Of a stretch of DNA of 45,750 bases, positions 8,377 to 37,946 are shown one piece after another. The stretch comes from Candidatus Hodarchaeaceae archaeon (lineage in GTDB: Archaea; Hadarchaeota; Hadarchaeia; Hadarchaeales; Hadarchaeaceae). Below the pieces are notes generated by a model that was not told the DNA's origin, did not search any database, and saw nothing but the letters and a program-made list of their open reading frames with translations. How positions within the stretch are numbered: position 1 is the stretch's first letter; every line of letters begins with the position of its first letter. The translations under genes and the position numbers were made by a program. Where the stretch lies: contig JASEGJ010000008.1 in NCBI GenBank assembly GCA_030018135.1, positions 1 through 45,750 of the forward strand, written 5' to 3'.

Positions 8377-8640
8377 CGTATTGCCTAAGACGTTGCCCCT
8401 AGCTTGCCATACGGAATATGCCAATGAAAGGGTTTAGTTGGGTGTCTTAGTTAAGACATCGATTCAAGCGGCCGCGTCTTAGGTAAAACACCTATTCACG
8501 AACTCGCCAATCGTGAGGACATCGAAAGGTGGGCTTGTCTGAGGTAAGACAAGATGTCTTAGTTAAGACATCAGCTCTAACAGTCGCGGCTTAGGTAGGA
8601 CATGTACGGGGCCATTTTTACCGATGTCTTAGGTAAGACA
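8377..8640. repeat. Cluster of 16-bp palindromes, consensus TGTCTTA-(GG/GT)-TAAGACA
   Basis: Copies at 8443-8458, 8475-8490, 8536-8551, 8555-8570, 8587-8602 and 8625-8640, plus a degenerate reversed copy at 8377-8392. Confidence 0.9.
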
Positions 8641-8715
8641 CCCCAGCGGTCTAAGCCAGTCGATCTGGCCAACGTAAGCTTAATTAATCATGGGCTTAAA
8701 ATTGAGGGGGTTGCG

Positions 8716-9072
8716 ATGAAAGTTGAAATAACAGAAAAGGTCGAGAATCCGCTGCTCCAGCGAACGGAAATCAAATTTAAGGTGAATCACGCAGGCGAAC
8801 CCACGCCCAAGCGCTCAGATGTCCGCGCCCAGCTGGCCGCCCATCTCAGCGTACCGGAGGAGCTCGTAGTGATCGAAAAATTGGCGGGTATGTATGGCCG
8901 CCGGGTGGCATCGGGCATCGCGCGCGCCTACAGCTCCCGCGAGCGACTTGAGAAGATCGAGCCAGAGTACCTGATCAAGCGCGGCTTGCCAGCTGAAACA
9001 AAGGCTGAGGCCAAGCCCGAAGAGAAACCTAAGGAAGTAGGTAAGAAGGGTGGCCGGGGTCAAGACAACTAA
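8716..9072 (+). CDS. rps24e: 30S ribosomal protein S24e
   Basis: MKVEI...[10 protein letters not shown]...[12 protein letters not shown] 8716 follows GAGGGGG; the 8602 extension runs through the repeats and is rejected. Confidence 0.95.
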
Positions 9073-9232
9073 GGCGAGGCTTTACAAGCAGGAGGGTGGA
9101 AAGCTCATACGGCTTAGGCCATCCTGCCCGAGATGTGGCCATGGGGTCTTCATGGCCGACCATGGCAATCGATTGGCATGCGGGAGATGCGGCTATACGG
9201 ATTTCAAAGGCAGCCCACAAGGTAACCCCTAA
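9050..9232 (+). CDS. rps27ae: 30S ribosomal protein S27ae
   Basis: [25 protein letters not shown] zinc finger. Confidence 0.96.
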
Positions 9233-10530
9233 TCAACCAGTTTCACTTGCGCATCGAGCACGGCCGTTGAAGATTTTTCAAGCTCTGCCCTATTTTCTTC
9301 TATTTTATGTCTTATTTCGCCTAACTTTGTTTGCGTCGCGCCGATGTTAGCGCGAACTCGCTCGAGTTCCAACTTTTGCTGCTCAATCGATTTCTCCAGC
9401 TCAGCCTTTCTCCTCAACAGCGGGGACTGCTTATACGCGCTGCTTTTTGATTCCCTTTCGGCCAATAACTGCCGGTACTCCTTTTGGATGCCGAGCAAAG
9501 TTGTTGTTTTGAGGAGCTCGTGGATCCGCTCGAGCTTTTTCCGACGCTCTCGCGCGCTCAGTTCTACCTCGCCGCTTTGAATTAAGTTTTGAATATCAAG
9601 CAGAAGAGCGTTTAACATGGGCAGCCCATCGACTTCGGAAAGGGCCGCTTCAAATGGGTCATCGATATATAGATCTAGCGCCTTAGCGAGATCCCTGTCT
9701 AGAGGATGTTTCCCAATTGATACCAGATTTCTCATCTTTCGAAAGGGGCGAGAGATGCCTGAGGTGATCGAAATAAATGCGTTTCGTAGATGGTTCATCC
9801 CCTCTTCGAGCTCCAAGAGTTCTCGTTGCAGGCTTTCCAGTTGCTTGAAGTCATCGCATTTCATCAGGCGTTCTAGCTCCGTAGATCCCTCCATCAGGGT
9901 TTGGCTGAGCACACCCTCCCTCCTCTCAAGTAGCTCCTCCTCTACACGCAGCCTCTCGACCTCTTTAGCGAACTCCCTTTGTCGCGCTATTAGTGAGGCG
10001 ATACGGTCTAGCTCCCGGAGTTGTGCACCCTTCTCATTTAAGAGCTCGCCGAGCCTGATCGTTAGCCCGTGCAACTTGTGGATCGATTGGAAGAGGTTCT
10101 GCATTTGTTTTTCAAAAAGTATCGCCACATGGCGACCGTGGGCGGCGCTGGTTTCTGCCACAAGACTTACCGCCCGGGCCGCAGAATCATTAAAATCCAA
10201 CAAGCTTTGCCAAGTTAAATCTCGCGGTCTATTGACCCCATCCATCGCACGAATTATCTTCTCGGTCAGAAGACGTCGGGCTTCATTCCCCATCTTGTAT
10301 AATTTTGGATGTACATCCTCGGTTAGCTCGGCCTCGGAGATGATTTGAGTTGCTATTTTAACGCCTTCACATGCGATGATGATCTCGTCCACTTTCGGTT
10401 TTAAGATTTCTACTGCTTCAGCAGACCGGTCCTCCTTTAGGTGTTTTATTTGTTCATCAAGCAAATCGAGCGTAAGTTCCTTAATTTGAGGCGCTGCGGG
10501 CTTTTTGCCGAATATTTTGCGGAAAAACAT
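9229..10530 (-). CDS. Long coiled-coil hypothetical protein
   Basis: Heptad-rich E/L/K/R sequence with no Walker A motif seen; likely start [10 protein letters not shown] at 10530. Confidence 0.75.
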
Positions 10531-10754
10531 CAAACTCGCCAAACGATACCTAGCTGAACCACTGTTTAAAAAGTTCGGCATCGAACGTTCGCCAGCAACT
10601 GGTGGTTATACTTAAAGGATAATCCAAATTCAAGATCCTTATCCTTGTCATTTCCGCCTCTAACTACGCCGGACAAAACGCTTCTAAATTTGAGCGAGTG
10701 AACCTTTAATAGCACTTGCGGCGATGTTATCACATCAAGAAAGGAGTTGAAGGA

Positions 10755-10988
10755 GTGTATAGACCAAGAGGATTCAGACCGAGAGGTGAACGAGGGCCGC
10801 CTGCTCCGGTTAAAGTGGGCGACACACCCACCGTGAAGATAGAGGGACGAGGAAAGGGTGGCGACGGGATCGCCCGCGTGGAGGGGTTCGTGGTCTTCGT
10901 GCCCGGCACAAACGTCGGGGATGAGGTAAGGGTCCGGATAACCGCCGTACAGCGAAGATTTGCCACAGCTGAAGTTGTCAAAGAGTGA
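10755..10988 (+). CDS. Single TRAM-domain RNA-binding protein
   Basis: PPAPVKVGD...[28 protein letters not shown]...FATAEV; GTG start after GGAG. Confidence 0.9.
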
Positions 10989-11091
10989 GCCCTCTTTTAC
11001 TTTGAGCTCTGGCCTTCTCGCTTGAAATAGCGACAGCTTCAGATTTTCACCGCGGATGCCAAACACCTACGCTCGTAGATTTGTGCATTAA

Positions 11092-12114
<1,023 letters not shown>

Positions 12115-12132
12115 ATTGGTCAAACGAACGCC

Positions 12133-12822
12133 ATGAACAAGGTGACGGGGCCCATGTCGCTGATCAAAAAAGGGGCTGAGGCCAATCTCTACCTCGAGGA
12201 CTTCTCAAGGGCGCTCCACCCCGCCGGCGCCGGCCGAGTCATCATCAAACATCGCATAAGCAAGCGCTACCGAGTACCACAACTCGACCTGCAGCTTCGG
12301 GAGAGCCGCACAGCCCTCGAGGCGAAATTATTCGCGGATGCCAAGGCCGCGGGGGTGCCGACGCCGGCTGTGTACGAGATCGACCGCGCCGCCACGCGAC
12401 TCATCATGGAATACATCGAAGGGAAGCAAGTAAAACTCATATTGGATGGGCTCGAGCCGGGCGAGAGGCGCAAGCTTTGCAGACTCATCGGTAGGCAGGT
12501 CGCCCGTCTGCACGCGGCGGGAATTGTGCACGGCGACCTGACGACATCCAACATGATCCTGACTAGTGAGGGAAAGGTCTTCTTCGTCGATTTTGGGCTC
12601 GGCGAGTACGACTCCTCGCTCGAAGCTCGGGGCGTGGACCTCCACCTGCTCGGGCGCGCCCTCCAGAGCGTTCACTTCCGCATCGCCGATGGGGCCTACC
12701 GCGCCGTTCTCTCCGGTTATAGGCGTGAATTCGGAAAGGGGGCCGACGAAGTCGTAGAACGCGCCAAGGAGATCGAGCTTCGCGGGAGGTATGTGGCTAA
12801 GGAGGAAAGAGTATGGCATTGA
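12133..12822 (+). CDS. bud32: KEOPS kinase Bud32
   Basis: GAEA, HGDLTTSN, DFGL, EARGVDL, RGRY. Confidence 0.96.
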   Translation: MNKVTGPMSLIKKGAEANLYLEDFSRALHPAGAGRVIIKHRISKRYRVPQLDLQLRESRTALEAKLFADAKAAGVPTPAVYEIDRAATRLIMEYIEGKQVKLILDGLEPGERRKLCRLIGRQVARLHAAGIVHGDLTTSNMILTSEGKVFFVDFGLGEYDSSLEARGVDLHLLGRALQSVHFRIADGAYRAVLSGYRREFGKGADEVVERAKEIELRGRYVAKEERVWH

Positions 12823-13391
12823 TCTTCGCCACCGGCAATCGCCACAAGTTCAAGGAAGCGAGCGAACTGGCATCGAAGTACGGCTTGGAGCTGGAGATGC
12901 GCGATGTGAATTACGAGGAGATCCAAGCGGATGAGTTGGAGGAAATCGCGCGCCACGGCGCCGAGAAAGCCTGCGCCCTGCTCGGCAGGCCTTGCTTCGT
13001 CGAAGACGCTGGGCTATTCGTCAGGGCGCTCAGCGACTTTCCTGGGCCCTACTCCTCGTATGTGTTCAGGACCATAGGCAACGAGGGCTTGCTGAAGTTG
13101 ATGGTGGGCGTGAGCGATAGGCGGGCTGAGTTCAGGTCGGTGGTGGCCTACTGCGAGCCAAGTTCGGGGCCCATGAGCTTCGAGGGGAAGGTCCAAGGGA
13201 GCGTAGCACTCGAGGCTCGGGGGTCGCGCGGCTTTGGGTTTGACCCCATCTTCACCCCGCGAGGGGCCAGCGGCCGAACCTTCGCGGAGATGGCGATAGA
13301 TGAAAAAAACAAATTTTCCCATCGAGCCAAGTCAATCGAGGGTCTTCTTAAATGGTACCTGAGGAAATCTGGAGGTCGTCTTGAAAAATAG
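12813..13391 (+). CDS. rdgB: XTP/dITP diphosphatase (RdgB/HAM1)
   Basis: FATGNRHK, EDAGL, FPGPYS, GFGFDPIF, KNKFSHR. Confidence 0.96.
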   Translation: MALIFATGNRHKFKEASELASKYGLELEMRDVNYEEIQADELEEIARHGAEKACALLGRPCFVEDAGLFVRALSDFPGPYSSYVFRTIGNEGLLKLMVGVSDRRAEFRSVVAYCEPSSGPMSFEGKVQGSVALEARGSRGFGFDPIFTPRGASGRTFAEMAIDEKNKFSHRAKSIEGLLKWYLRKSGGRLEK

Positions 13392-13517
13392 CCCACACCC
13401 ACCGCAACCATATCAACATGACTAACAATATCACTATCACAACTATCATCCGACGTGGTGCAACCGTAAGGTTTCTTAAGTGGTACGCCAAAATGAAAAA
13501 GGCTTGATGGTGGGAAA

Positions 13518-13934
13518 ATGGAAAAAATCAAAAATGTAAAACGTGGAGCATCCGGCGGTATGCTGACGGGAGAGGTCGAGGAGCTGGTGGTGAAGCTCGC
13601 CAAGAAGGGCCACCCAGCGAGCAAGATTGGCATCATCCTGCGCGACCAATACGGCGTGCCGAGCGTCAAACGGACGACGGGTAAAAGTATGATACAAATC
13701 CTAAGGAAGCACGGCTTAAAGCCAGAACTGCCCGAGGACTTGATGAACGTGATAAAAAAAGCAGTTGAGCTGCACAGACATCTCGCACAAAATCGGAAGG
13801 ATACTGCCTCCAAACACGCCCTCGAGTTGATTGAGGGAAGGATCAATAAACTCGCTAAATACTATATCCGTACTGGCGTGTTGCCTGTGGATTGGCGTTA
13901 CGATCCCGAGAAAGCGGCCCTCTTGGTTCGCTGA
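13518..13934 (+). CDS. rps15: 30S ribosomal protein S15 (S13e family)
   Basis: [38 protein letters not shown]. Confidence 0.95.
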
Positions 13935-13946
13935 GCGGGTGCTAGT

Positions 13947-15356
13947 TTGGGGTCCGCTGAGATAAGAAGATTTCAACGCAGGGCCGATGATGTCGCGGAA
14001 TTCCTTAAAGCCCACCTTGTCGGCGAGAGCCGCGTCAGGATAATCGCTCACATCGATGCCGACGGGATAGCGGCGGCGGGCATTTTGGCAAGGTGTCTGT
14101 ATGCCTACAATACTCCGTTCCACATCATGTTTACGCGTCCGCTCAAGCCAGCGGAAATAATGGAACTCAGCAAGGAGGACTACGATCTTTTTATATTCGT
14201 CGATCAAGGCAGCGGTCAAATTGCCGCCATCCATAAGTTTTTGCTCAGCAAGGAATGCGATGTACTGATTTTGGACCATCATCCGAGCGATTTTCCGGAA
14301 CACAAAAATCTCGCGTATCTCAATCCGCACGCCTGCGGGCTAAACGGTGCCAAAGACGTGAGCGCGGCGGGCGCTGCCTATTCGGTCGTTGAACATGTTG
14401 ATAAAAACTTTAAACCGCTTGTTGGGCTGGCGATCGTGGGTGCCGTCGGCGATCGTCAAGAGTTCTTTTCTGGCTTTACCGGCGTGAACGAGGTACTCGT
14501 CAAGCGAGCTATAGATCTTGGCCTTATCCGCGTCAGCACTGGTCTAAAGCTGATAGGTCGCAGCTTCTCCCAGATCGCTGAATGCCTGAGGCTGTCCATC
14601 AGGCCATATTTGCCAAGCATCTCGAGCGATCCAACCGCATGCTACGCCTTGGTCGAGTCACTTGATATCTCACCAAAAAGTACTATTGATGAACTTGGTC
14701 AGGAGATGGAAGGGAAGCTCGGAGACGCACTTCTAGCCAGAGTTGGCCAAGTTGCGGCAGATGAAAACTTCCGGTATACCCTTTTGGGAACCGTGTATAC
14801 CTTGACGAAAGGGGCGACCGGTCCGCGCGATGTGCGAGATCAGGTAGCAATGCTCGATGCATGTGGCAAATTTAACAAAGCAGAACTCGGATTTGCAGTA
14901 ACCGTGGGCGATCAAGTTGTGCTGACGGAGGCGCTCGCATTACTTCGCATCTATCAGGAGCACATGGTCGGGGTGCTAAGATGGCTCACAGCAAATATAG
15001 ATACATTTAGGATCACACCCCACATGCGCTGCATTTACGCGGAGGATGCGATCGAGCCCACTATGATAGGGGAAGCACTTTCCCTAGCGATGGAATCTGG
15101 AATAATCGCGACGGATCGCCCTGTGATCGGACTTGTAGATGCTGGCGCTGAGGAACTCAAGGTTTCCGCCAGGGCGACGCCCGGCTTGGCGATGAGAGGC
15201 GCGAATGTGGGGCTGGCACTCGCGAGGGCAGCCGAGGCGGTTGGCGGCGAGGGAGGAGGACATGATGTCTCAGCGGCGGCGCGAATACCGCGAAGGCGGA
15301 TGGATGAATTCACGGTGGTGCTTGACCGGGCCCTCGCAGGAAATCATGGAGCATGA
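13947..15356 (+). CDS. RecJ/Cdc45-like DHH phosphoesterase (GAN-like)
   Basis: HIDADG, DQGSG, DHH and C-terminal GGGH DHHA1 motifs; conserved position after rps15. Confidence 0.9.
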   Translation: MGSAEIRRFQRRADDVAEFLKAHLVGESRVRIIAHIDADGIAAAGILARCLYAYNTPFHIMFTRPLKPAEIMELSKEDYDLFIFVDQGSGQIAAIHKFLLSKECDVLILDHHPSDFPEHKNLAYLNPHACGLNGAKDVSAAGAAYSVVEHVDKNFKPLVGLAIVGAVGDRQEFFSGFTGVNEVLVKRAIDLGLIRVSTGLKLIGRSFSQIAECLRLSIRPYLPSISSDPTACYALVESLDISPKSTIDELGQEMEGKLGDALLARVGQVAADENFRYTLLGTVYTLTKGATGPRDVRDQVAMLDACGKFNKAELGFAVTVGDQVVLTEALALLRIYQEHMVGVLRWLTANIDTFRITPHMRCIYAEDAIEPTMIGEALSLAMESGIIATDRPVIGLVDAGAEELKVSARATPGLAMRGANVGLALARAAEAVGGEGGGHDVSAAARIPRRRMDEFTVVLDRALAGNHGA

Positions 15357-15468
15357 CCGATGGACGAAACAAAAATTCAGGTTAGTTTAAGGCTTCGCGC
15401 GCAATCGGGCTCCTCGGCCCTAGCCACGTTTATTAGATAGCTTTTGATAAAATTGTTTAAGGGATACC

Positions 15469-15891
15469 GTGACATTTGAACAGAGTGACCTCCAGAGGTT
15501 GATTGAGGAGATAATTGAACTTTACCAACGTTACTGTAGCGACCCAAGCGCGATTGACGTTATTTGCTCGGAGCTAAGGACACTTTACCAGAAAATACCA
15601 ATTTATCCGGGAATCATTGTAGATTGTTTACCAAAAATTGTGCAGCCCCTCAGACCTGAGGAACTAAAGGAAGGGAACGAAATTTCAGTTCTACTGAAGA
15701 ACAATCAGATATTTGTTGGAAAGGTCGCGGCAGTTGCCTCAGACAAAATAACGTTAGTCGACTGCAAACAGTTTGAGCGACCGAGGTCATTAGGGGAAGT
15801 TAGCCTCCCCATGCGCGATGTACATGGGATCAAGCTACTCATGCGCGGTATACTTCAAAAGGAGTGGCCAAGTCTGGACTTTGGAGAATGA
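15469..15891 (+). CDS. Hypothetical protein with a possible C-terminal Sm/LSm-like beta-barrel
   Basis: Helical N-terminus, then GNEISVLLKNNQIFVGKV...DKITLVDC, which resembles an Sm1 motif; stop overlaps the Clp1 start. Confidence 0.6.
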   Translation: MTFEQSDLQRLIEEIIELYQRYCSDPSAIDVICSELRTLYQKIPIYPGIIVDCLPKIVQPLRPEELKEGNEISVLLKNNQIFVGKVAAVASDKITLVDCKQFERPRSLGEVSLPMRDVHGIKLLMRGILQKEWPSLDFGE

Positions 15892-17165
15892 TGTGCCGAG
15901 GTGCCGAAGTGCCGGAGCTAAAACTTAAGCGAGGCGATGTGGTCAGGCTTGAAGGGATGCTGAGCCTCCGAGTCAAGGAGGGCAATGTATCCATAAGCGG
16001 GGGCCTGCACGGAAAGGATAGCAAAATCGTGGTACCCCGAGCCAAATCATTGCCGTTGGAGGCAGAGACCGATGCGGTGGTGGAATACGCACTCGGGGCC
16101 GGTGGGAGCCTTGAGCAGCTACCAGAACGGACGATCCCCCATGAATGGGATGTTTTTATCGAGGATGTTATTCAAGCGAAACCCCTCATCATAATGGTGA
16201 TGGGGGATGTCGATGTCGGCAAGACTTTCTTCACAACTTACGTGGCAAATAAGTTGCTGAGGCAAGGCATAAGGGTCGCGGCCGTTGATAGCGATATCGG
16301 CCAAGCCGACATTGGTCCGCCGAGCACGATGGGTTTGGGGATTTTCGAGCGGCCCGTTGGTCTGCTGTACGAGATACCCGCGCGGGCGATTTACTTCATC
16401 GGTTCGATGTCCCCCTCCGGACATATGTTGGAGTTCATCGTTGGAATGAAGAAAATGGCCGAGCGCGGCTTAAAGGAGGCCGACATGACGATCGTAAACA
16501 CGCCGGGCTGGATTTCCGGCGGGCCAGCCCGTGCACTTCAACTCCACGCGATGGAGTCGCTCGACCCTGATATCGTGGTAGCTCTTCAGCAGGATAAAGA
16601 ATTAGAGCACTTGTTAGTTTGTGCTCCGCCGGCGAAGGTTAGAAGGGTACCTGCATCGAAAAAAGTGCGGCCGAGATCTCGTGAGGAACGGGCATTCTTA
16701 CGCGAGCTGCTCTTGGCGAGGTACTTCGAGGGCGCTGGCAGGGTCAAGCTAGATTTGCGCAGGGTCAGGCTGGAGCGCTGCTACTATCGCACGGGTCAGT
16801 TGCTAGATCCAAGGACATTGGGTGTGCATGCATCAATCGTCCATGCCGAAAAGCTACCCGAAGCGCTACTCGTGGTAGTTGAAGGCGCGTTAGATAGGGA
16901 GGCGATGCACAGGCTCGAAGCGAACTTTGGGCAGGTGAAGACAATCTCGAGGGGTAGCGAGAAGAATCTTCTGGTCGGCTTAGTGGATGGCTCAAATGAA
17001 CTGCTCGGCATAGGGATAATCGAAGAGATAAACTACGCGCGAGAGAAGATGATCGTGATCACGCCCGTGAAGGACGGAGATAAAATCGCGGCGGTCCAAT
17101 TTGGATCGATGAAGATAAAGCCAAGTGGCAAAGAGGTGGGGGCGGTGAGGCCCGGGACCTTCTAG
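15888..17165 (+). CDS. Clp1/Grc3-family polynucleotide 5'-hydroxyl kinase
   Basis: GDVDVGKT P-loop, DSDIGQ, NTPGW, R..R.ERA..RE lid and an N-terminal beta-sandwich. Confidence 0.9.
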   Translation: MMCRGAEVPELKLKRGDVVRLEGMLSLRVKEGNVSISGGLHGKDSKIVVPRAKSLPLEAETDAVVEYALGAGGSLEQLPERTIPHEWDVFIEDVIQAKPLIIMVMGDVDVGKTFFTTYVANKLLRQGIRVAAVDSDIGQADIGPPSTMGLGIFERPVGLLYEIPARAIYFIGSMSPSGHMLEFIVGMKKMAERGLKEADMTIVNTPGWISGGPARALQLHAMESLDPDIVVALQQDKELEHLLVCAPPAKVRRVPASKKVRPRSREERAFLRELLLARYFEGAGRVKLDLRRVRLERCYYRTGQLLDPRTLGVHASIVHAEKLPEALLVVVEGALDREAMHRLEANFGQVKTISRGSEKNLLVGLVDGSNELLGIGIIEEINYAREKMIVITPVKDGDKIAAVQFGSMKIKPSGKEVGAVRPGTF

Positions 17166-17173
17166 GTGTTTTC

Positions 17174-19472: not shown

Positions 19473-19483
19473 GCTGGTTTTTT

Positions 19484-24921: not shown

Positions 24922-24938
24922 GAATCCTGCTGGAGGCG

Positions 24939-25981: not shown

Positions 25982-25992
25982 AGTGACGGAAA

Positions 25993-26307: not shown

Positions 26308-26322
26308 TGTACATAAAATCGG

Positions 26323-28331: not shown

Positions 28332-28334
28332 AGG

Positions 28335-29240
28335 CTATCCCCTCAACCTCGGATCAAACGCGTCCCTCAACGCGTCTCCTAGGAAGTTGAAACCCAGAAC
28401 AGTTACTATAATAGCTATTCCCGGGAATATCGACATCCAAGGCATCTCCGCTAAAAACCTGCTATGCTCGCGGAGCATCGCCCCCCAGTCAGGCGTCGGG
28501 GGCATTATCCCCAACCCGAGAAAGCTCATGGCCGAGGACAAAAGGATCGCCGCGGGCAGCGTCATCGTCGCGAGTACTATGAGGGGAGATACTATATTTG
28601 GCAATACGTACCGAAGGATTATGCTTCTGTCCTTCTCCCCGATCGCTCGGGCGGCCTCGATGTATACTTCCTCCTTTACTGCCAAGGTCTGGCCGCGCGT
28701 CAGCCTAGCATATCCGGCCCAACCGGTTATCGACAGCGCGATTACCAAATTGTAAATACCGGGGCCAAAAAATCCGACAAATGCGACGGCCAGCACCAAG
28801 CCGGGGAACGCGATTACCGCATCCACTATCCTCATCATGACCCCGTCAACCTTACCGCCGCGATAGCCAGCTATCAACCCATAGGGTACGCCGATCACGG
28901 CCTCCACCGTGACGAGCAAGATCCCTATCGTCAGCGCGATCCTGGAAGCGTAAATGATCCTGCTAAAGATACATCTGCCGAGGTCATCCGTTCCCAAGGG
29001 ATATTTTCCGCCGGGGGGCAGAAGCTTGTCCTCCAAGCGCTGCACCTCTGGGTCATGTGGGGCTATGAAATCCGCAAATATCGCCACCGTGATGACCGCC
29101 AGCACGATTCCCAATCCAACCCACGCCCGCTTATCCCGCTTTAGGTACCTGAAGGTGGGCGACCTGCTCTTCCTTTTTAAATAACCGTAAATCCCACCGC
29201 CGACGTTTTTTGCCACGTTTGAAGACGCCACTGATCTCAC
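28335..29240 (-). CDS. dppC: Peptide ABC transporter permease (DppC)
   Basis: [16 protein letters not shown] (EAA loop), LSFLGLG-like, [11 protein letters not shown]. Confidence 0.93.
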
Positions 29241-29251
29241 CCTCTCTCCGC

Positions 29252-30184
29252 CTATCTTCTCTCCTCGTACCTTATGCGCGGGTTGAGGTACGCGTATGTG
29301 ATATCACAGAGGAGATTAGCTACGACCGCCAACACGACAAACATCAACATGACCCCGAGAACTGTGAGGAAGTCCGGCGCCGTGCCAAGTATCGAATCGA
29401 CCATAAGCCTTCCCATGCCCGGCCATGAGAATACTTTTTCTATCACGACCGTGCCGCCAAATAGGAACGGAAGTCGCAGAAACAATATGGTGACCACGGG
29501 GATGAATGCATTCCTCAACGCGTGTTTGTAAATGACCGCCCTTTCTCGAAGCCCCTTCGCCCTAGCTGTCCTTATGTAGTCCTGCCTGAGTACATCCAAC
29601 ATGCTCGACCTAGTTAATCTGGCCACTGAACCAGCCTGACTTGTCCCAAGAGTGATGGCTGGCAGTATCAAATATTCTATGCCGCCGTAGCCCGCGATTG
29701 GGAACCAGCCCAACCATATCCCAAATATCAATATTGCCATCAGCCCCTGCCAAAAGTTCGGTATGGAAACGCCGAAGAGCGCGATCCCCATACCCGTGTA
29801 GTCGACCCAAGTCTTTCGCCTAAGCGCCGCGATGATCCCGAGTGGAATGCCCATCGCCAGCGACACCATAAAGGCGGCGATGGTCAGCTCGAGCGTGCGC
29901 GGGAGCCTCTCAAGTATTAGTTGCGAAACGGGCGCACCCCACTTCCAAGACCTCCCGAGGTCTCCTCTGACGACCTTGCTCAGCCATATGAAATATTGCT
30001 CGTAAAGGGGCTTATCGAGTCCATAGGCGATTCGTATGCTCTCAATCTGCTCAGGACCTGCCATTGGGCCGGCTATCCTCGCCGCCGGATCGCCCGTACC
30101 AAACATTAATAAAAAAGTCGCAAGCGACACGCCTAACAATATGGGAATTATCGTTAGCAGCCTCTTCGCGATGAACTTGTACAT
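29252..30184 (-). CDS. dppB: Peptide ABC transporter permease (DppB)
   Basis: GLDKPLYEQY, GDLGRS, DYIRTARAKGL, HALRNA, LNPRIR. Confidence 0.94.
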   Translation of the reverse strand: MYKFIAKRLLTIIPILLGVSLATFLLMFGTGDPAARIAGPMAGPEQIESIRIAYGLDKPLYEQYFIWLSKVVRGDLGRSWKWGAPVSQLILERLPRTLELTIAAFMVSLAMGIPLGIIAALRRKTWVDYTGMGIALFGVSIPNFWQGLMAILIFGIWLGWFPIAGYGGIEYLILPAITLGTSQAGSVARLTRSSMLDVLRQDYIRTARAKGLRERAVIYKHALRNAFIPVVTILFLRLPFLFGGTVVIEKVFSWPGMGRLMVDSILGTAPDFLTVLGVMLMFVVLAVVANLLCDITYAYLNPRIRYEERR

Positions 30185-30239
30185 TTTTCTGCCCTAATTA
30201 TTTTTTGTAAGCCCCGTCGATATAAGGATGAACCGTGAT

Positions 30240-31869
30240 TTATTCCTCATGTTCCTCAATGTACGTGTCGAGAAACTTCCAGCACCAACCCAAAAGCGGA
30301 TGCGCCCTGTAGCCCTTGAGCTCGGCTCGATGGGCCATGAACATTGCGCGCTCCACTGTCGGTGTAATAACTGCATCGTCCATGATCAGCCTTTGGCTTT
30401 CGTAAAGGGCCGCGAGGGCCGTATCGCTGTCGAGCAAAAACGTGTTCTCGATGACGGCGTCCGAATAATCGCTGCCCCACCAGAATCTGTTCGGCCCGGG
30501 GGGCAACCGCACCCTGTGCCAGAGCCACCAAATCATGTCCGCATTGTGCCAAGTGTAACCCATGATGAACATGTCAAATTGAGCCTTGGTGATACAGTCG
30601 ATGAGCAGCCCGAACTCCAAAACTTGGATCGATAGGTCGACTCCGACCAGCTTCCACTGCTCCCTTAAGATCTCCGCCAGCCTCGGGTACGGCGGGGCCG
30701 AAGTGGTGAGTAACTCCAGATTCAGGCCGTCTGCGTACCCCGCCTCGGCCAACAACTGCCTCGCCTTATCCGGATTATATTGGTAATAATTTTCGACCCC
30801 AGGCCAGTAGCCCCATATGGAGGACACAAGCGGCCCATGAGCTGGAAGTCCCATGCCCTCGTAGGCGTACTCGACCAAGTTTTCCTGATAGGTGGCGTAG
30901 TTCAGCGCCTGCCTCACCCGGACATCGTTGCATGGCGAGGGCCTTTTGGTTTCTGGCCATGAGCGCACGGGGTAGTTCGCTGGCACCGGGAAGAGCGTGG
31001 GCGAACTGACGTTGAATCCGATGTAAACCATGGATGAGTAGGGCTTCTTGAGCATCACGATATCTGGGTTCCTCTCCCACCTCTCGAACAGCTCGGCGCG
31101 GGGGGCAGCTTGCTCCAACATGTGGACCCTTCCAGCCTCGAGCTCGGCCTCCTGCACCAGGGACTCCGGGATGACCCTGAATATGATCCCGTCCAGGTGC
31201 GCCGGGCCGCGGTTTTGATAGCGCGCGGGACCCCACTTGTAGTCCGGGTTTCGCTCAAGCACGATCCTGTCGTCCCGAATCCACTCCTTGACCCTGAACG
31301 GCCCCGTGCCGCAGAACTTGCTCACGCCGTAGTCCTCCCCGTATTCCTTAACACAGTGCGGGCAAACTATGACACTCGAAGTCGTGGCGAACCAATCGAC
31401 GAGGAATCTATCCTCTTTCTTCAGGTGAACCCTCACGGTGTACTCGTCCACCACCTCGACATCCAAAATGTTCTTCACAGAGTCCTTATGCTTGGAAGGG
31501 GGCCAATCCTTCGCCCTCTCGATGCTGAACTTCACCGCCTCGGCGTTGAACGGCTCGCCGCAGTGGAACTTCACGTCGTCCCTGAGGTGGAAGGTGATGC
31601 TGAGCCCGTCAGGGGCAACCTCCCAAGATTTCGCCAGCAGGGGCATGTCCCCAGTCGAAAGTCATGAGAGTGTCGCATATTAGACCTATCACACGGGTCG
31701 CGGGATCAAAAACCGTTCGATGTATGTCCAAGATGTCCGCGTCCTGGCTCTGGACGATTACCAACACCCCGCCCTTCGGCACGGGCGGGGCCCTGGGCAC
31801 GAGGATATACGCCACCGCGAGTATGATCAAAATCACTATTGCTGCCGTGCCCACCTTAACCCTGACCAC
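30240..31869 (-). pseudogene. dppA: Family-5 substrate-binding protein (DppA) split by a frameshift near 31650
   Basis: 31609..31869 encodes the TM anchor and ...ICDTLMTFDW; 30240..31646 continues in another frame with PLLAKSWEV...TFHLR.DVKFH.G.PFNAEAVKFS and GTGPF. The break is at CCCC 31649-31652. Confidence 0.8.
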
Positions 31870-31902
31870 ATGCCAACCTCGTGTTGCTTTTCGATGATAT
31901 CA

Positions 31903-31941
31903 AAGAAAAAGTAAGGGATTCGTCGGCGTTTTCCCTTACTT
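31903..31941 (-). terminator. Hairpin plus U-tract between the surface-protein gene and dppA
   Basis: On the minus strand: AAGTAAGGGA-N13-TCCCTTACTT followed by TTTCTTT. Confidence 0.6.
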
Positions 31942-32022
31942 CAGTTAGGGATTACGATCGTGGCCGACATCGGTACGATCACAGAGGAGCTAGCATCGAT
32001 GTCGCGATACCCTCGTACCGAG

Positions 32023-34476
32023 TTATTCCTTCTTCCTTCGCTTCAACGTCAAGTATGCCGCTATCGCTATTATCACTATTACGACGATCGCTGCGATCAC
32101 TGCCCACGGTATCTCGGCTATCTCGGCGGGCGGAGCCTCTTCCGCGGTCAACCTGAACTCCAATTCATCTGATGCCCCAGTCCCAGTTACTTTTGCCTTT
32201 AGGTCGTCCCTCGTGATGGCATCCACCTTGGGCGTCGTTATCGTTATTTTGACCTCGGCGCTCTGCCCGGGTGATATTGTTACCTCCCCGCGCTCAAGCT
32301 CGACCGGCCAACCCTTTGTGCTTGTGACGGCGATCCTATACGTATTTGTCTCGGTGCCCTCGTTCGTGATCGTCAGGGTGAAGACCCCTTTCTCCCCGCC
32401 TTTCACCGTCGGTCCCTTTCCTGGATCCCATGATCCCTTTACCGAAACCGCATACGGCGAGTACCAAACCTCGTGATCCACGAGGTAAACGCGGGGGTCC
32501 CATGGCCAGCGGTTATACTTTTCGTTGTCGGTCACTTGGTCGTCCTGCACCCTGATGCCTGCCCCCAACGCCTCGAGAATCGGGTTAGTGTTGAAGGGTC
32601 TGGTGTAGCCACCATAATCGGCCTGCTCGCCGAGGAACAGGCCCCCGCCCGCGAGTACCCAGTCGCGGATGGCCGTGATCTCGGCACTTGTAAGGGATCG
32701 CTCCGGGGTGACGAACATGAGCACGCTGTACGGCGCGAGGCGCTCCGAGGTTATCCCATCGGTGTAGGTGTGGACCGTGTAGCCCTGACCTTCCAAGAAA
32801 TTGAGCCACAACTCCATGCGATCCTTGTTGTGGAAGGCCGTGGAGGGGGTCCAGTAGAAGAGCACGCTGTGCTGCGCCGCGTTCTCGTACCGCACCAACC
32901 AGCCCACCATGCGCGAGCCAATCTCCCTGAGCCTCAACGCCTCGACGCTGAAGTGGTCCGTCGGCGCGCTCCGGAAGCTGGCTCCGCCGCCGTGGACTAT
33001 GACCCTGCCTCCTCCAACCTCTGCAGCCGCGGCTATGATCGGGAACTCGCCCCTGCCGAACGGCACCGGGTAGGGCTCGCGGTAGGATTCATCGAGGGTG
33101 CAAGCGGTTTCCGTCCCGATGATGATCGGCTGCGCGGGGGATTCGACGGTGAGCGAGGGCGTGCTGAAGACATAGTAGTATTCGTCCTTTCTGTATATCG
33201 GGTATGGGGGTTCTGCCGTCGGGAAGTACGGTGCCGTCGATAGGAAGACCGAGTCCTCGACGCCTGTGCCACTTGCCGTGATCTTGACCACGTTTCTGAC
33301 CTTCTTCGTTATGGCCGGGTCGACGGTGATCCTGACCGCTACCCTGTACACCTCGCCCGCTGCGAGCGAGAGCGTGGATGGCGAGACCTCTATCCCCCAC
33401 CCCAAGTTATCGGTCGCGGTTACGGTGTAGTTGTCGTCGAGGGTGCCCGTATTGGCGACGGCAACGATCGTTACGATGTCCTTCCCGGGTTCTTGAGTGA
33501 CCAACGTGGGTCTGAAGTTGTTGTCCACCCGAGGGGATTGCTTCGGCTCGGTTTCGAGAAACGTTACCGCTACCGTCCTCAACGCGGGCGGGGCGAGCGT
33601 GCAAATGCTGTACAACCCGATCTCCGTCTTTCCGATGGCAGCCTGGTAGGCAGCCCCTATCTCGGTCGTGGTGTCGACATCGAGGACTGGCTGGTATGCG
33701 CCGTACCAATAATTGGTCGTATCGCTCATCTGGTCCATCTGGAACCAGAGCCCGAAGCCGAGGGCGGAGAGTATCTTGTTCTGCACCTTGTAGTAGTTGT
33801 GTCCGCCGTAGTCGGAGGCATCCATGACGAGCAGGCCCTTGCCCTTCTCCTCGACGAAGGCCTTGATGGCGTCAACACTTGCTTCAGGCAGGAAGTCCGG
33901 ATCTCCTCCCGTCGCGGCAGTGCCGAGCTGGAACTGAGGTACGACAAGGATGTCGTACGGCGCGAGAAGGCTCGCGGTGATGGGCTCGGTGCTGTCGCCC
34001 GTAATCGTATATCCCAAAGCTTCGAGCGCGGCTACGAGCTGCGCGCATCGCTCGGTGTTGTTGTAGACCCCGTAGCCCTCGTACCAGAGCACCTTGGCCG
34101 CGCCGGGTTTCATCCACCGGAATGCCTTGTCGAGCAGGATATCGAGGTGGGGTAGTGGGTTCGCTCGGCCCGCCCTCGCATCGTTCCACCTGCCGTCCCG
34201 AGCGGTGGCTGCGAGGCCCGCGGCGACGACCGCCCCGGCGCCGATCCTCTGGGCCGCCATTATGGGCGGGCGATCGCCGGCTACGTAGAATTTCCACGGT
34301 TTATCTCCAGTTTGGTTTATGTTAAAGGCGGTTTCCTTTCCGCGGACGATGACGATGACCTCCGGATTTTCTGCGACTGTAAAGCTCGAAGTTATGAATG
34401 TCAACGTCGCTGTGATCATTAGGATAGATATCAAAATGCCGCTCCTTGTGATCGCTTTACGATTTTTCGTTTTCAT
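32023..34476 (-). CDS. Secreted, C-terminally anchored surface protein with two DUF4350/GATase-like domains and two Ig-like domains
   Basis: Signal peptide; duplicated ITxxxLAPYxxL...DYGG modules; NTGTLDDNYTVT and NEGTETNTYRI Ig-like units; C-terminal TM plus KRRKKE. Confidence 0.8.
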   Translation of the reverse strand: MKTKNRKAITRSGILISILMITATLTFITSSFTVAENPEVIVIVRGKETAFNINQTGDKPWKFYVAGDRPPIMAAQRIGAGAVVAAGLAATARDGRWNDARAGRANPLPHLDILLDKAFRWMKPGAAKVLWYEGYGVYNNTERCAQLVAALEALGYTITGDSTEPITASLLAPYDILVVPQFQLGTAATGGDPDFLPEASVDAIKAFVEEKGKGLLVMDASDYGGHNYYKVQNKILSALGFGLWFQMDQMSDTTNYWYGAYQPVLDVDTTTEIGAAYQAAIGKTEIGLYSICTLAPPALRTVAVTFLETEPKQSPRVDNNFRPTLVTQEPGKDIVTIVAVANTGTLDDNYTVTATDNLGWGIEVSPSTLSLAAGEVYRVAVRITVDPAITKKVRNVVKITASGTGVEDSVFLSTAPYFPTAEPPYPIYRKDEYYYVFSTPSLTVESPAQPIIIGTETACTLDESYREPYPVPFGRGEFPIIAAAAEVGGGRVIVHGGGASFRSAPTDHFSVEALRLREIGSRMVGWLVRYENAAQHSVLFYWTPSTAFHNKDRMELWLNFLEGQGYTVHTYTDGITSERLAPYSVLMFVTPERSLTSAEITAIRDWVLAGGGLFLGEQADYGGYTRPFNTNPILEALGAGIRVQDDQVTDNEKYNRWPWDPRVYLVDHEVWYSPYAVSVKGSWDPGKGPTVKGGEKGVFTLTITNEGTETNTYRIAVTSTKGWPVELERGEVTISPGQSAEVKITITTPKVDAITRDDLKAKVTGTGASDELEFRLTAEEAPPAEIAEIPWAVIAAIVVIVIIAIAAYLTLKRRKKE

Positions 34477-35446
34477 AATCTACCTCCCAAAGAAGATGAG
34501 GGCCGACTTTTATAAATGTTTTGGAGGGAAAAAAATATTTTTTGCCCGCCAAAGACCACGAGAAAATCAAAAGCATTGCGGCGAGCATTGGTGCCGCTGT
34601 TAAAGGATTTAGGCCCATGCTGGCTGCGCGGGTTTTCGAGGTTTCGAATGTAAGTTTGTAATGGGGCTCCTCCAGCCAGACGCCCTCGAGGTGGTTTCTC
34701 GCCCTTATCTCCACCTCGACCTCGCCACCCTTGGGCTTTACGAAGAGGAAGATCGATTCGTACTGTTTGTTCCAATCTATGGAATTGACCCCGAACGACA
34801 TGAACCCGTAGGGGGTGTTTTCAACCAACACCCACCGATGAAGATGCCCGTGGAACCACACATCGACGACGACATCGCCCTCGAACGCCGTCTGCAACTT
34901 GGGCCAGACGTTCCATTGATAGTAGGGCTGGTGGGAGAAGATGAAGATCGGCTTGTCCCTGTTGGTATGGAGCTCCGCCCACAGCCAGTCGAACTGCTCG
35001 TCGCCCATGACCCCGCCGCCGTAGTGGACGTAATTCTCCCAGCCCTTTTCGTCCGATATCAGCACGAACCTAATTCCAGCCACATCGATGCCCCTATATG
35101 ACAATGGAAGCACGGCCTCCCCCGTGTCGCGGTCAAAGTCGTGGTTGCCCAAAACGTAGTACCATCCCCTGACCTTCAGGTTTTCCATCATCCCTGCGAT
35201 CGGTGGAAAACTGCGGTGGCTGTCGTTCGCGAGGTCCCCCAGGCAGATGGCGTAGTCCGCTATTTGAAGTCTGTTCACGTCCTCGATGGCAGTGCGTAGG
35301 TACCTTTCGTCTCCCGGGAAAACGTGAGGGTCGGTAAACACCCACCAGACCTGCTCGCCGTCGCCCCGGGTGACGATGAAGCCCGTGGCCGCGAACGCGC
35401 ACGCCGCGACGACCGCAGCCGCAACCATGATAATTTTCGAACCCAT
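34457..35446 (-). CDS. Secreted calcineurin-like metallophosphoesterase
   Basis: DPH, GD, GNHD, SH and GHLH motifs; N-terminal signal/TM and a hydrophobic C-terminus. Confidence 0.88.
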   Translation of the reverse strand: MGSKIIMVAAAVVAACAFAATGFIVTRGDGEQVWWVFTDPHVFPGDERYLRTAIEDVNRLQIADYAICLGDLANDSHRSFPPIAGMMENLKVRGWYYVLGNHDFDRDTGEAVLPLSYRGIDVAGIRFVLISDEKGWENYVHYGGGVMGDEQFDWLWAELHTNRDKPIFIFSHQPYYQWNVWPKLQTAFEGDVVVDVWFHGHLHRWVLVENTPYGFMSFGVNSIDWNKQYESIFLFVKPKGGEVEVEIRARNHLEGVWLEEPHYKLTFETSKTRAASMGLNPLTAAPMLAAMLLIFSWSLAGKKYFFPSKTFIKVGPHLLWEVDYENEKS

Positions 35447-35469
35447 GTTTTCACCTCACGAACTCACGA

Positions 35470-36558
35470 TCACTCAAGCCAGCTCGAGTAGACGCTCCCC
35501 CAGTCCCTTTGGAATATCTTCATCAAATCCCCGACCACCTCGGGGGATCTGACCATCACGCCGACATCCCTGCCCCCGTCGGTTATGTACCGGATGTCGA
35601 TGTTGGCGCTCCCGACGTAGGCCCACTCGTTGTCGACCACGATGACCTTGGGGTGGGCCGAGTATGGATGTCTGATGACCGTCACGCCCACCCCCTCACG
35701 TCCCGCGAGCTCCTTGAGGGCGTACTCCCATTTGAGGGACTCCTTGTCCACCATCACCTCCACCCTGACGCCTCGGTCGAGCGCGCTCACCAAGGCCTCC
35801 CTGAGCTTGGGGGGCATGCCGTTGTATATGTACATGTAGATGTAGACATTTTTTTCCGCGCGATCTATCAGCGCGGCGAACGCGTCGAGGGTGCGGGTGA
35901 CCTCCACGGGCACCTCCGGACCGTTGGCCACCGGGATCACCCAATCCGCCCCCCAATATTCACTGCCCCTCGGCTCCCCGCCCGCCGCGACCCAGCCGCT
36001 CTCGAAGATATATGTGTAGGTCCCAGCCATCTCCTCGCCGTAAAGCGTAAGATTCACCTCGCGGTTGAAGGTCAAGGCGTAGTAGCTCCAGTTGGTGCTC
36101 CCGACGCTCACCACCTTCCCATCCACTATCATGTACTTCGCGTGCGTCTGTCTGGGGAATGGCAGCGCGGTTATCCCCTCGTGCTGGTCGAGTTCCTTCA
36201 CTATGTCTCGAGCGTAGTTTCGCCCGTCCACGAGGATCCTGATCTCAACGCCCCGATCGGCGGCATCCTTGAGGGCACTGTAGACATCGCCCAGGGGGCC
36301 TTGGGGAGGATTGAGGTAGTAGGCTTCGATATCTATGGTATATTTTGCCTCTCGAATTAGCTTGAGCCAAGTATCTGCGATGTCGTCTATCTTGGGATCG
36401 TTCAGCTCCGGGGGCGCGGTCTCGGTCACCTCGATGCTCGGCGCGGCCGGCGGCGTCGAGCTGAGCGAGCGGTAGCCGGCGTAGCCGACGGTTATCGCGA
36501 CGGCAACGAGCGCCGCGATGACCGGAACAACCCTTGCAGATTTGCCCTTCAAGTCCAC
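35470..36558 (-). CDS. Membrane-anchored phospholipase D-superfamily enzyme (two HKD motifs)
   Basis: HAKYMIVDGK...GSTN and HPKVIVVDNE...GSAN; N-terminal TM. Confidence 0.92.
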   Translation of the reverse strand: MDLKGKSARVVPVIAALVAVAITVGYAGYRSLSSTPPAAPSIEVTETAPPELNDPKIDDIADTWLKLIREAKYTIDIEAYYLNPPQGPLGDVYSALKDAADRGVEIRILVDGRNYARDIVKELDQHEGITALPFPRQTHAKYMIVDGKVVSVGSTNWSYYALTFNREVNLTLYGEEMAGTYTYIFESGWVAAGGEPRGSEYWGADWVIPVANGPEVPVEVTRTLDAFAALIDRAEKNVYIYMYIYNGMPPKLREALVSALDRGVRVEVMVDKESLKWEYALKELAGREGVGVTVIRHPYSAHPKVIVVDNEWAYVGSANIDIRYITDGGRDVGVMVRSPEVVGDLMKIFQRDWGSVYSSWLE

Positions 36559-37493
36559 CCCTCGGCCGCCTGTTTCATGCTATCCTCTGCCATCACAGGG
36601 GGTCTGCGCGTCGCCTTATTAATTTTTGGGCTGGTGGCTGGTTGGGCTCGCTTCCTCAAGACGTATGTAATTACGACCAAGGCGAAGGCCATCGCCGCGA
36701 TGGCTACGGCAGCCCAAGCGGTTCTCGGTCCCTCCTCGGTCGATACCCCGGCCTTCACCAATCCGGCATCTATCAACGCCGTATACCAGATGTCGGCCGT
36801 CAACCTTACGGCGACGTTGAGCCTGTTCTCGGTTATCCCCCTTAAAACATCGTTCCAAAGTACCCCCTGCACCAGCCAATAGCTCACCTTATCGCTTTCA
36901 TAGCCCGCGTATCCAAAGCTATCTAGGGCGACCTCGACCGTCGCCTGAAAGACGTTCTCGAGTAACCTAGGTTCGTAATCGTAAATCGTTATCTCGTGTA
37001 GCATCCCATCCACCCCGTCCTCGAATGCAACGTGCCTCCCCCCAGGGTTGTAGTCCGAGGTCGCATGGAGCGGCATCGTGATGTCCGTGGCGTAATGGGT
37101 TATCGCTCCCGCGAGCAGAGCGGCGCGCTCCCAGTCCCTAGCCCTCAGGCTCTCGACGAACATGAGGTAGTTATCGGCCAATGCCCAGGGGAGCATACCC
37201 AGTTCCGGATTCACCCCATCGGGGGATAGGTCTACATCGTAGAAGTGCCTGTATCGCTCGCTCGGGTCCTCGCCCCGCCATTTTATGTCGGGATAGATGG
37301 AGTACTCGACGACGAGGTCGCCGAACGCGTTGAAGAAGGGCTCTTCGGGGAGCAGCCCCATCGCCCGCTCGGCGACGAATTTGTGGGCCCTCAGGCCCCA
37401 ACCCCGCACCTCCGCGACTGAGGCGGAACTCAAAATGAGAACCACGAGGACGACGAAGGAAGCTCGGAAGATTAAACGACCGTGAGCCATCAT
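36549..37493 (-). CDS. Secreted S1/P1 nuclease / Zn-dependent phospholipase C family protein
   Basis: Signal peptide then WGLRAH; PD, HFYD, HYATDITMPLH and HVAFE zinc ligands; C-terminal TM plus RKR. Confidence 0.88.
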   Translation of the reverse strand: MMAHGRLIFRASFVVLVVLILSSASVAEVRGWGLRAHKFVAERAMGLLPEEPFFNAFGDLVVEYSIYPDIKWRGEDPSERYRHFYDVDLSPDGVNPELGMLPWALADNYLMFVESLRARDWERAALLAGAITHYATDITMPLHATSDYNPGGRHVAFEDGVDGMLHEITIYDYEPRLLENVFQATVEVALDSFGYAGYESDKVSYWLVQGVLWNDVLRGITENRLNVAVRLTADIWYTALIDAGLVKAGVSTEEGPRTAWAAVAIAAMAFALVVITYVLRKRAQPATSPKINKATRRPPVMAEDSMKQAAEGWT

Positions 37494-37612
37494 TTGCCCC
37501 CTAAATTAATTGCGGACGTGCTTTTAAAGCTGCGCTGCATTAACTATTCAGCCGTTTGGTGGAGGCTAGTTCGGGGCGTGGCCTAGGCCGCCTATGTGGT
37601 GGGCGCCTTCGC

Positions 37613-37946
37613 TGTCACAGCTGTGACGTCGGGGCAGCGCCGCGGATGTCACACCTGTGACACGAGGCGCGCGATTTTGCCCGCTTATAAACGACCTCCA
37701 CCCAAAGCCCTCGCGGGCTATGCCGAACTCGTATCTGATCGTCTACGACATAAGGGAGCTCGACTGCGGGACGAGACAGCGGGTGAGCCGGCGCCTCAGA
37801 AAAATCCGCGCGGTGAGGCTTCAGCAATCGGTGTGGGAGTCGAGCAGACTGGCGGAGCTGAAGAACCTAGCCGACTCGATCGGTCTGGCCGGCGGGAAGG
37901 CGTTGGTGTTGGAGAAGCGAACAGTCCACTTGTCACACCTGTGACA
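37613..37946. repeat. Three 16-bp palindromes TGTCACA-NN-TGTGACA
   Basis: TGTCACAGCTGTGACG at 37613-37628; TGTCACACCTGTGACA at 37647-37662 and 37931-37946 (identical). Confidence 0.88.
37720..37944 (+). CDS. Orphan Cas2-like (ferredoxin-fold Cas2/VapD/PaaX-type) small protein, 74 aa
   Basis: YLIVYDI...RQRVSRRLRKIRAVRLQQSVWE matches the Cas2 pattern; TATA-like CTTATAAA at 37684-37691. Confidence 0.72.
   Translation: MPNSYLIVYDIRELDCGTRQRVSRRLRKIRAVRLQQSVWESSRLAELKNLADSIGLAGGKALVLEKRTVHLSHL

Follow-up and report, generated by a model that had tools for sequence, protein, structure and literature searches.

The 45,750 bp window analysed here is contig JASEGJ010000008.1 of a Candidatus Hodarchaeaceae archaeon (Hadarchaeota), referred to as contig C44 of genome G000; the assembly is 1.108 Mb in 45 contigs, has a G+C content of 55%, and is 93% complete. 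Numbers preceded by G, C, and L denote genomes, contigs, and loci. Two families of short palindromes of the form TGTC-N8-GACA are present in the window. Family A (TGTCTTAGGTAAGACA) forms an array between a DUF359 gene and rpS24e, and family B (TGTCACACCTGTGACA) surrounds a small gene for a protein of 74 aa, P0001, that is predicted to have the Cas2 fold. The positions of these features are given in Table 1. The subject of this report is the relationship between these palindromes and the Cas2-fold proteins encoded beside them.

Table 1. Positions of palindromes, genes, and cassettes in the window, with sites of a third palindrome family elsewhere in G000
Feature	Position	Strand	Remarks
Stretch of 296 bp holding the whole family A array	8373..8668		Between DUF359 gene (7857-8375) and rpS24e (8716-9072)
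Family A palindrome TGTCTTAGTTAAGACA	8443..8458	+	
Family A copy CGTCTTAGGTAAAACA	8475..8490	+	2 mismatches
Family A copy TGTCTGAGGTAAGACA	8536..8551	+	First member of composite module 8536-8640
Family A palindrome TGTCTTAGTTAAGACA	8555..8570	+	Second occurrence
Family A copy CGGCTTAGGTAGGACA	8587..8602	+	3 mismatches
Family A consensus copy TGTCTTAGGTAAGACA	8625..8640	+	
Whole family B cassette	37613..37946	+	334 bp
Family B copy TGTCACAGCTGTGACG	37613..37628	+	Left end of the 334 bp cassette
Family B palindrome TGTCACACCTGTGACA	37647..37662	+	Ends 23 bp upstream of the TATA box
TATA-like box TTATAAA	37685..37691	+	Read from the sequence, putative promoter; then leader CCTCCACCCAAAGCC..., common to other cassettes
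Gene of 74 aa Cas2-fold protein P0001	37720-37944	+	Family B cognate candidate; between palindromes 37647 and 37931
Family B palindrome TGTCACACCTGTGACA	37931..37946	+	Overlaps last codons and stop; right end of the cassette
TGATACA-family copies in G000	C11:31449-31464 (= L006:950-965), C9:2981, C9:14881, C16:879, C16:4000, C24:2503, C43:49287		

Both of the 16 bp palindromes described in the original prediction are real and have one architecture, and they occur far above chance in the window and in G000. The TGTC-N8-GACA pattern is found 7 times in the window against 0.54 expected, and none of 100 shuffled sequences reached 7. With up to three mismatches allowed there are 6 copies of family A, between 8443 and 8640, and 3 of family B, each against 0.09 expected. 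Pairs of family A copies are 32 bp apart (8443 to 8475 and 8555 to 8587) and the family B pair is 34 bp apart (37613 to 37647), as had been predicted. The seventh match to the pattern, at 16408-16423 (TGTCCCCCTCCGGACA), belongs to neither family; it has no inner dyad symmetry and no relatives, and is attributed to chance.

A genome-wide system had been proposed from these two families, and enumeration of the pattern bears this out. There are 37 TGTC-N8-GACA sequences in G000, compared with 3 of the reversed pattern and 8 to 15 in ten first-order Markov genomes. Sorted by hand, 21 of the 37 are family A, 11 are family B, and 5 are neither. Perfect 7+2+7 palindromes number 109 in G000, and the two families head the half-site ranking with TGTCTTA (14) first and TGTCACA (11) second; the others are TGATACA (7), CCGCACT (4, all at contig ends), and 73 singletons. 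One simulated genome had 84 perfect 7+2+7 palindromes, none of which was repeated. Neither Rfam, at its gathering thresholds, nor ARAGORN gave a match in the window, so the arrays are no known RNA family.

The original prediction had also held that no cognate protein is evident in the window. This proved mistaken, as the gene for P0001, the family B candidate, lies between family B palindromes. Two family B copies are upstream of the TATA-like box and the third is at the 3' end of the gene; the ATG is at 37720 and the TGA stop codon (37942-37944) falls within this last palindrome. The whole cassette recurs at G000:C10:15873-16206, where 331 of 334 bases are identical and the flanking sequences match at only 9 to 14 of 50 positions. 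As the flanks are unrelated beyond the 334 bp, the outer palindromes mark the exact limits of the duplicated unit. A decayed third copy, deleted at its 5' end, is found at C23:2658.

Family A has a candidate of its own outside the window. This paralogue, P0002 (G000:C11:21111-21401), is 96 aa long and 40% identical to P0001, and is bracketed by family A sites at C11:21091 and 21328/21390. Upstream of P0002 there is a TATA box and then a family A palindrome 4 bp before the ATG. The 3' end of the gene is overlapped by further family A copies, with five more downstream. A tblastn search of G000 found only two near-identical family B genes (C44 and C10), both bracketed by family B sites, and this one family A gene.

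The Cas2-fold proteins and their palindromes

The similarity of these proteins to Cas2 is weak but specific. P0001 and P0002 score 22.4 and 22.2 bits against PF09827 of Pfam, below the cut-off of 23.8, and 18.3 bits is reached against TIGR01573, below its cut-off of 24.5; the matches in Pfam and NCBIfam are of Cas2 type only. An AlphaFold2 model from an 18-member alignment has a predicted local distance difference test (pLDDT) score of 91.8 and the strand order of Cas2. Its top Foldseek matches in the PDB are Cas2 proteins (2ivy, 5g4d, 3exc, 1zpw, and others) and the Cas2-like domain of PaaX, and a profile search of PDB sequences has 3exc as its best match (E 1.2e-4). Fold and strand order match those of Cas2, solo Cas2, and VapD-like proteins such as Sso1404 (2ivy), SSO8090 (3exc), and that of T. 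onnurineus (5g4d), as do an N-terminal Y-D motif and a Q-x-S-V-[WF] motif. All 18 aligned members are basic (pI 8.9-11.5), and D10, L26, A31, Q35, S37, V38, W39, and G59 are invariant in all 18. These include the Q-x-S-V-W motif and, in D10, the conserved acidic residue at the end of strand 1 that is a trait of Cas2. A nuclease role is possible, given this invariant Asp at the Cas2 catalytic position. A predicted homodimer of P0001 (two copies, with the alignment) scored 0.32 against a mark of 0.42 and carries no weight either way.

The solo Cas2-fold proteins span 69-96 aa. Homologues are found in 19 of 41 relatives when the single protein is the query and, by profile, in 30 of 66 genomes of the phylum, chiefly those of one family (26 of 45). 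Among 1.84 billion representatives searched with the profile, just 121 proteins matched at E<=0.001, which indicates that the family is small. Close homologues are labelled Hadesarchaea or Candidatus Hadarchaeum in public sources, and several members are named Cas2 in the Joint Genome Institute (JGI) annotation. Several homologues are fragments or carry stops, and many of those in databases are on contigs shorter than 2.5 kb.

Unlike Cas2, the genes are not beside cas1 or a clustered regularly interspaced short palindromic repeat (CRISPR) array, and each protein pairs with a specific 16 bp palindrome that brackets its gene. No cas neighbour was found at any locus examined; there is no Cas1 among the 64 flanking open reading frames (ORFs) of 32 loci, where the neighbours are unrelated housekeeping genes. 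The sole Cas1 match in G000 is a fragment on another contig (C40:15831-16019). It covers the last 66 of 283 profile positions, in an open frame of 116 aa, and appears to be a remnant. The weak P0001 matches in genomes of a sister family (L018:322-1725 (-), L020, L022, L023, and L025) are proteins of ~390-480 aa in which an N-terminal Cas2-like domain is fused to DUF2117 (PF09890, E 3e-98), and no palindromes were seen around these.

The pairing of gene and palindrome was compared at 37 distinct homologue loci, sorted by hand and, being from related genomes, not independent. Palindromes of family type are present at 31 of the 37, at both ends of the gene in 22 and at one end in 9, with a background of 1.3 per kb for any 7+2+7 palindrome having up to one mismatch. 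Twenty of the both-end loci follow a one-mismatch rule and the other two have an upstream copy with two mismatches; three of the one-end loci are gene fragments or at contig ends. The palindrome differs between orthologue groups, including TGTCACA..TGTGACA, TGACATA..TATGTCA, TGAYACA..TGTRTCA, TGACAAA..TTTGTCA, TGTCCCA..TGGGACA, TGTCTTA..TAAGACA, TGTCTCA..TGAGACA, TGTCAAA..TTTGACA, TGTCCTA..TAGGACA, TGTCCAA..TTGGACA, and others. Mapped onto a maximum-likelihood tree built from 32 proteins, the 15 classes of palindrome require 16 changes (the minimum is 14), whereas shuffled labels average 22 and none of 200 shuffles was as low. As related rows share labels, the test shows congruence and not independent events. 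This pairing, and its agreement with the protein tree, support the proposal in the original prediction of one DNA-binding protein family with variable specificity. The palindromes are very probably the cognate sites of the Cas2-fold paralogues, judged from these sequence comparisons.

One orthologue type was tried as a reader of further sites in G000. An L089-type paralogue, known from a distant homologue in G056 beside TGTCTTACGTAAGACA, was considered for the sites with a CG core, and tblastn found none in G000. These sites were therefore assigned to family A.

The original prediction had drawn an analogy with ParB/Noc proteins. The sites here are indeed 16 bp long, dyad-symmetric, clustered, and genome-wide, a likeness to parS and Noc-binding sites (NBS) that is one of form only. 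However, ParB_N (PF02195) has no match at E<=0.01 in the 93% complete G000, whereas the control search was positive in 11 of 14 reference genomes. None of the 64 flanking ORFs is ParA-like, and it is a different protein, of Cas2 fold, that co-varies with the sites. A chromosome-marking system of ParB/Noc type is extremely improbable. The earlier interpretation thus stands as to one family, variable specificity, and genome-wide extent, and fails in its ParB/Noc analogy and in its statement that no cognate protein is evident in the window. The centromere-binding proteins of type Ib and type II partition systems (ParG, ParR, and omega) are small basic dimers with an array of sites beside the gene, as would likewise be the case here, and autoregulation is likely. 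The Hadarchaeota proteins differ from these in having no partner ATPase, in having the Cas2 fold rather than ribbon-helix-helix, and in the presence of arrays at many chromosomal places.

At the protein's own gene, the site separates TATA from the ATG, overlaps the ATG, or precedes TATA. At several loci of one type I clade the ATG is within the palindrome (TGACACACGT-ATG-TCA) and the stop codon is the palindrome's own first TGA. Start and stop codons inside palindromes raise the alternative that these sequences act as RNA hairpins, with the Cas2-fold protein, as a ribonuclease or an RNA-binding protein, recognising them at both ends of its own mRNA and in transcribed arrays, in CRISPR-like or toxin-like processing. 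Some Cas2 and VapD proteins are ribonucleases, and the Asp10 at the catalytic position is invariant. The non-palindromic core keeps one orientation per array (GG or GT in family A, never CC in arrays), and the family B doublet folds at -35.9 kcal/mol (z -5.3). This stability is, however, a trivial consequence of two like palindromes, and single palindromes fold weakly, at -4.5 and -7.1 kcal/mol (z -1.3 and -1.2). Deviations from symmetry are nearly always in one arm rather than compensated, 58 versus 2 in family A and 49 versus 5 in family B, where the 3-mismatch counts include some chance matches, and the asymmetric form TGTCTTATTTACGACA is conserved in four genomes. The family B promoter sites are upstream of TATA and would probably not be transcribed. 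RNA hairpins are accordingly a quite unlikely explanation.

At 13 of 17 loci a gene of ~105 aa is directly before a type II Cas2-fold gene, and the palindrome fills the 26 bp gap. This conserved place suggests that the type II lineage at least is an old, vertically inherited resident. The ~105 aa gene (L031:1712-2041 (-); G000:C11:23265-23567) has no Pfam family and encodes ...LIHYQTLE...RIKLWRKSDIL...GGKPVA*; in G000 it is 2 kb from the type II gene, beyond a gene of metallo-beta-lactamase fold. It is present in 43 of 66 genomes of the phylum, compared with 30 of 66 for the Cas2-fold gene, and was rejected as an obligatory partner because it is also found in genomes without a detected Cas2-fold gene. 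A TATA box and leader, TTTATAAAGAACCTCCACCCAAAGCCTCGGCGGG (window 37685-37719; L010:1440-1497; L008:120-161), are common to type I cassettes, some type II genes, and the ~105 aa upstream gene. The promoter of the ~105 aa gene thus seems to be present as a copy in the cassettes.

Distribution of the sites within and between genes

A palindrome is also present, in frame, within the gene for a lipoyl synthase of the LipS1 family (251.7 bits versus a cut-off of 230). It occupies the same codons (P-D-V-L-x-x-T-C) in each of the 9 orthologues that have it, out of 26, the other 17 being without it. The sites in G005 (TGTCTTATTTACGACA) and G002 (TGTCCTATTTAGGACA) are identical to the palindrome of the resident paralogue, that in G011 (TGTCCTATATAGGACA) is of the same family as the resident's, and that in G000 (TGTCTTACGTGAGACA) is close to family A; in G019 and G004 no paralogue was found. 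The middle residues vary with the site, being LRE, LFT, LFR, LYR, or LRK. The LipS1 codons thus change as if the DNA palindrome, and not the peptide, were kept, which would place the site under selection.

The family A array in the window is not conserved. The order of the DUF359 gene and rpS24e is kept at 20 of 22 loci, two loci that are cut by contig ends having been dropped. The gap between the two genes is 340 bp in G000, whereas most relatives have a gap of tens of bases. Of the orthologous gaps, only that of G000 contains family palindromes (1 of 22), and the 21 relatives are without the array. In contigs of related populations from three hot-spring metagenome runs, with flanks ~90% identical, 8372 is joined to 8669 by 70 other letters instead of the 296; the three runs have three study codes, and two of them may represent a single data set. 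Palindrome-like sequence is seen at a loose end in a fourth run, which suggests that the array in related populations is shorter, not absent. Among the sequencing runs listed for 8300-9100, none is of RNA. Likewise, the family B doublet before an OB-fold gene is present only in G000 among 22 orthologous upstream regions (L135 is mis-registered and uninformative), and several B-type sites of G011 have no counterpart in G000.

The sites recur as modules. The ~105 bp family A composite (8536-8640) is found again at G000:C41:13824-13927 and partly at C11:21481-21545 and C11:31525-31589, and family A composites of 3 to 4 palindromes recur together with the sequences between them at C44, at C41, and twice on C11. 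A ~130 bp family B module without the gene precedes unrelated genes on C6 and C22; in it, a left arm containing GGAACATCGTT is followed by two palindromes spaced 34 bp from each other and then by the right arm CACGCGAGCC. A CRISPR-like array was rejected, as the would-be spacers recur between loci and the spacing is irregular at 19-91 bp. Origin recognition boxes (ORB) at a replication origin were rejected for the family A array, since at least six clusters of this kind exist and the relatives have no array at their orthologous sites.

These distributions bear on the alternative of an ordinary family of host transcription factors, for which the sites would be operators of a stable regulon, the arrays cooperative operators, and nothing would be mobile. 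The position of the site between TATA and ATG, or over the ATG, of the protein's own gene would be expected of such a regulator, as would single sites in promoter regions (for example C41:17188 and C41:29701), the LipS1 site that is fixed in position across genera and co-varies with the resident paralogue, and the type II genes behind the ~105 aa gene. However, the sites are not conserved at orthologous promoters, as seen for the array in the rpS24e gaps and the doublet in the OB-fold regions, the B-type sites of G011 are not matched in G000, and the size of the array varies between ~90% identical populations. The duplication bounded by palindromes and the common pseudogenes and fragments are equally at odds with a stable regulon, and a site at the stop codon is not needed by such a regulator, yet 22 of 37 loci have sites at both ends. 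A purely host regulon is therefore rather unlikely.

A purple-acid-phosphatase-like metallophosphatase gene adjoins the family B cassette in the window (38031-39422 (-)), and such a gene also adjoins the Cas2-fold gene of G040 (L015:1267-1947). Two purple-acid-phosphatase-like paralogues in G000 (C1 and C27; L100 = C1:11095-12480) contain a perfect in-frame family B 16-mer that encodes the peptide (D/N)VTPVT. This may in part be a coding coincidence of the peptide VTPVT; the G013 orthologue differs by just two synonymous changes, and the site was therefore not weighed as strong evidence.

A third family, TGATACA-NN-TGTATCA, has 7 perfect single copies in G000 (Table 1), located in AT-rich promoter-like gaps and each flanked by a T-run and an A-run. 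There is 1 copy in G010 and none in 39 other relatives. Type I genes in G058, G002, and G016 have this same sequence as their palindrome class, and no cognate gene for it was found in the G000 assembly. The palindrome CCGCACTTCAGTGCGG is within a longer common stretch at four contig ends of G000 (C22:30-45, C26:64-79, C39:471-486, and C40:63991-64006), and is probably a multi-copy repeat that broke the assembly.

Proposed mechanism and related systems

The Cas2-fold protein is likely to be a sequence-specific autoregulator that binds duplex DNA and is carried on a duplicative cassette resembling those of repetitive extragenic palindromic (REP) sequences and REP-associated tyrosine transposases (RAYT). 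Family B would be read by the product of 37720-37944 and family A by the C11 paralogue. A symmetric dimer may bind double-stranded DNA with one monomer on each 7 bp half-site (TGTC or TGAC and the variable triplet), and the contact with DNA would be through the arginine-rich first helix. Such a symmetric dimer on duplex DNA would agree with the perfect dyad, the spacing of the half-sites by about one helical turn, and the basic character of the first helix. Cas2 dimers can lie on duplex DNA in the integrase complex, which also fits. Two cognate sites would bracket the gene, the first located at the start codon or promoter or shortly before it and the second on the stop codon. At a start codon, promoter, or leaderless start, binding would repress the protein's own transcription in the usual archaeal way.

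Gene and sites together form a small cassette, and sites alone form modules of 2 to 4 palindromes. Cassettes and modules alike have given rise to copies at new intergenic positions, grow or shorten from strain to strain, and degenerate; the copies would be moved either by the protein itself or by host recombination. Protein and site would diversify together, so that one genome can hold several pairs that do not cross-react.

Several points weigh against this reading, in addition to the relatedness of the loci compared. No family palindrome was found at 6 of the 37 loci (L011, L013, L081, the degenerate L024, and the fragments L078 and L083). The LipS1 sites of G012, G021, and G040 differ from the paralogue found, although these metagenome-assembled genomes are 82-86% complete and the matching paralogue may be unassembled. 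The family B sites are upstream of TATA and not over the start, to which simple autorepression fits less well. A fold of ~70 residues without a known DNA-reading motif would be an unusual sequence-specific binder. The conserved neighbourhood of the type II genes favours a stable host gene over a roving element.

An alternative is that the Cas2-fold protein is itself an enzyme that cuts at and copies its palindromes, which is unlikely. If this were true, the 334 bp palindrome-bounded cassette would be the smallest autonomous mobile element known. It would also offer a present-day example of a native association between a Cas2-type protein and arrays of short palindromic repeats, which may serve as a model for the first meeting of Cas2 and repeats before CRISPR.

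The autoregulator on a duplicative cassette has its closest likeness in the REP and bacterial interspersed mosaic element (BIME) systems with their RAYT (REPtron), as these are described in PMC2817692, PMC3116915, and PMC3733652. By those accounts, the two have in common short palindromes dispersed in intergenic clusters with an abundance that differs between lineages and strains, a single associated gene flanked by its own repeats, and paralogues in one genome that pair with different repeat families. Mostly vertical inheritance, as reported there for RAYTs, and occasional copies inside genes at a fixed position are also shared. The REP definition given in PMC3733652 is a GTAG (or CGTC) tag at one end of an imperfect hairpin. 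The Hadarchaeota sites are instead symmetric 16 bp dyads, TGTC...GACA or TGAC...GTCA, without a GTAG tag, CGTC being a minority variant only. The protein of ~70-96 aa has the Cas2 fold and is not an HUH/Y1 transposase of IS200/IS605 type, copy numbers are in the tens and not hundreds, and the host is archaeal.

Cas2 is a structural subunit of the CRISPR integrase and a weak nuclease. PaaX has a Cas2-like domain, and is matched here by structure (8a39, query-normalised TM-score (TMq) 0.69, root-mean-square deviation 2.6 A) and by sequence (PaaX_M, E 0.008). The Hadarchaeota proteins are without the winged helix of PaaX, and reading of the DNA would thus fall to the Cas2 fold alone. In the literature covered, which was mostly abstracts and included few subscription journals, no account of solo genes for Cas2-fold proteins paired with palindromes of their own was found, and the repeat-and-protein system appears to be undescribed.

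The repeats break metagenome assemblies and can be mistaken for parts of CRISPR. If the proposed recognition is true, a solo Cas2 fold reading a specific 16 bp palindrome would be a new DNA-recognition module, and the ~15 natural protein-site pairs that differ in the inner triplet would be a series for decoding how the fold reads DNA. Most described partnerships of REP/RAYT type are bacterial and involve an HUH transposase. Their counterpart here is archaeal and uses a different fold, which suggests that this lifestyle evolved more than once.

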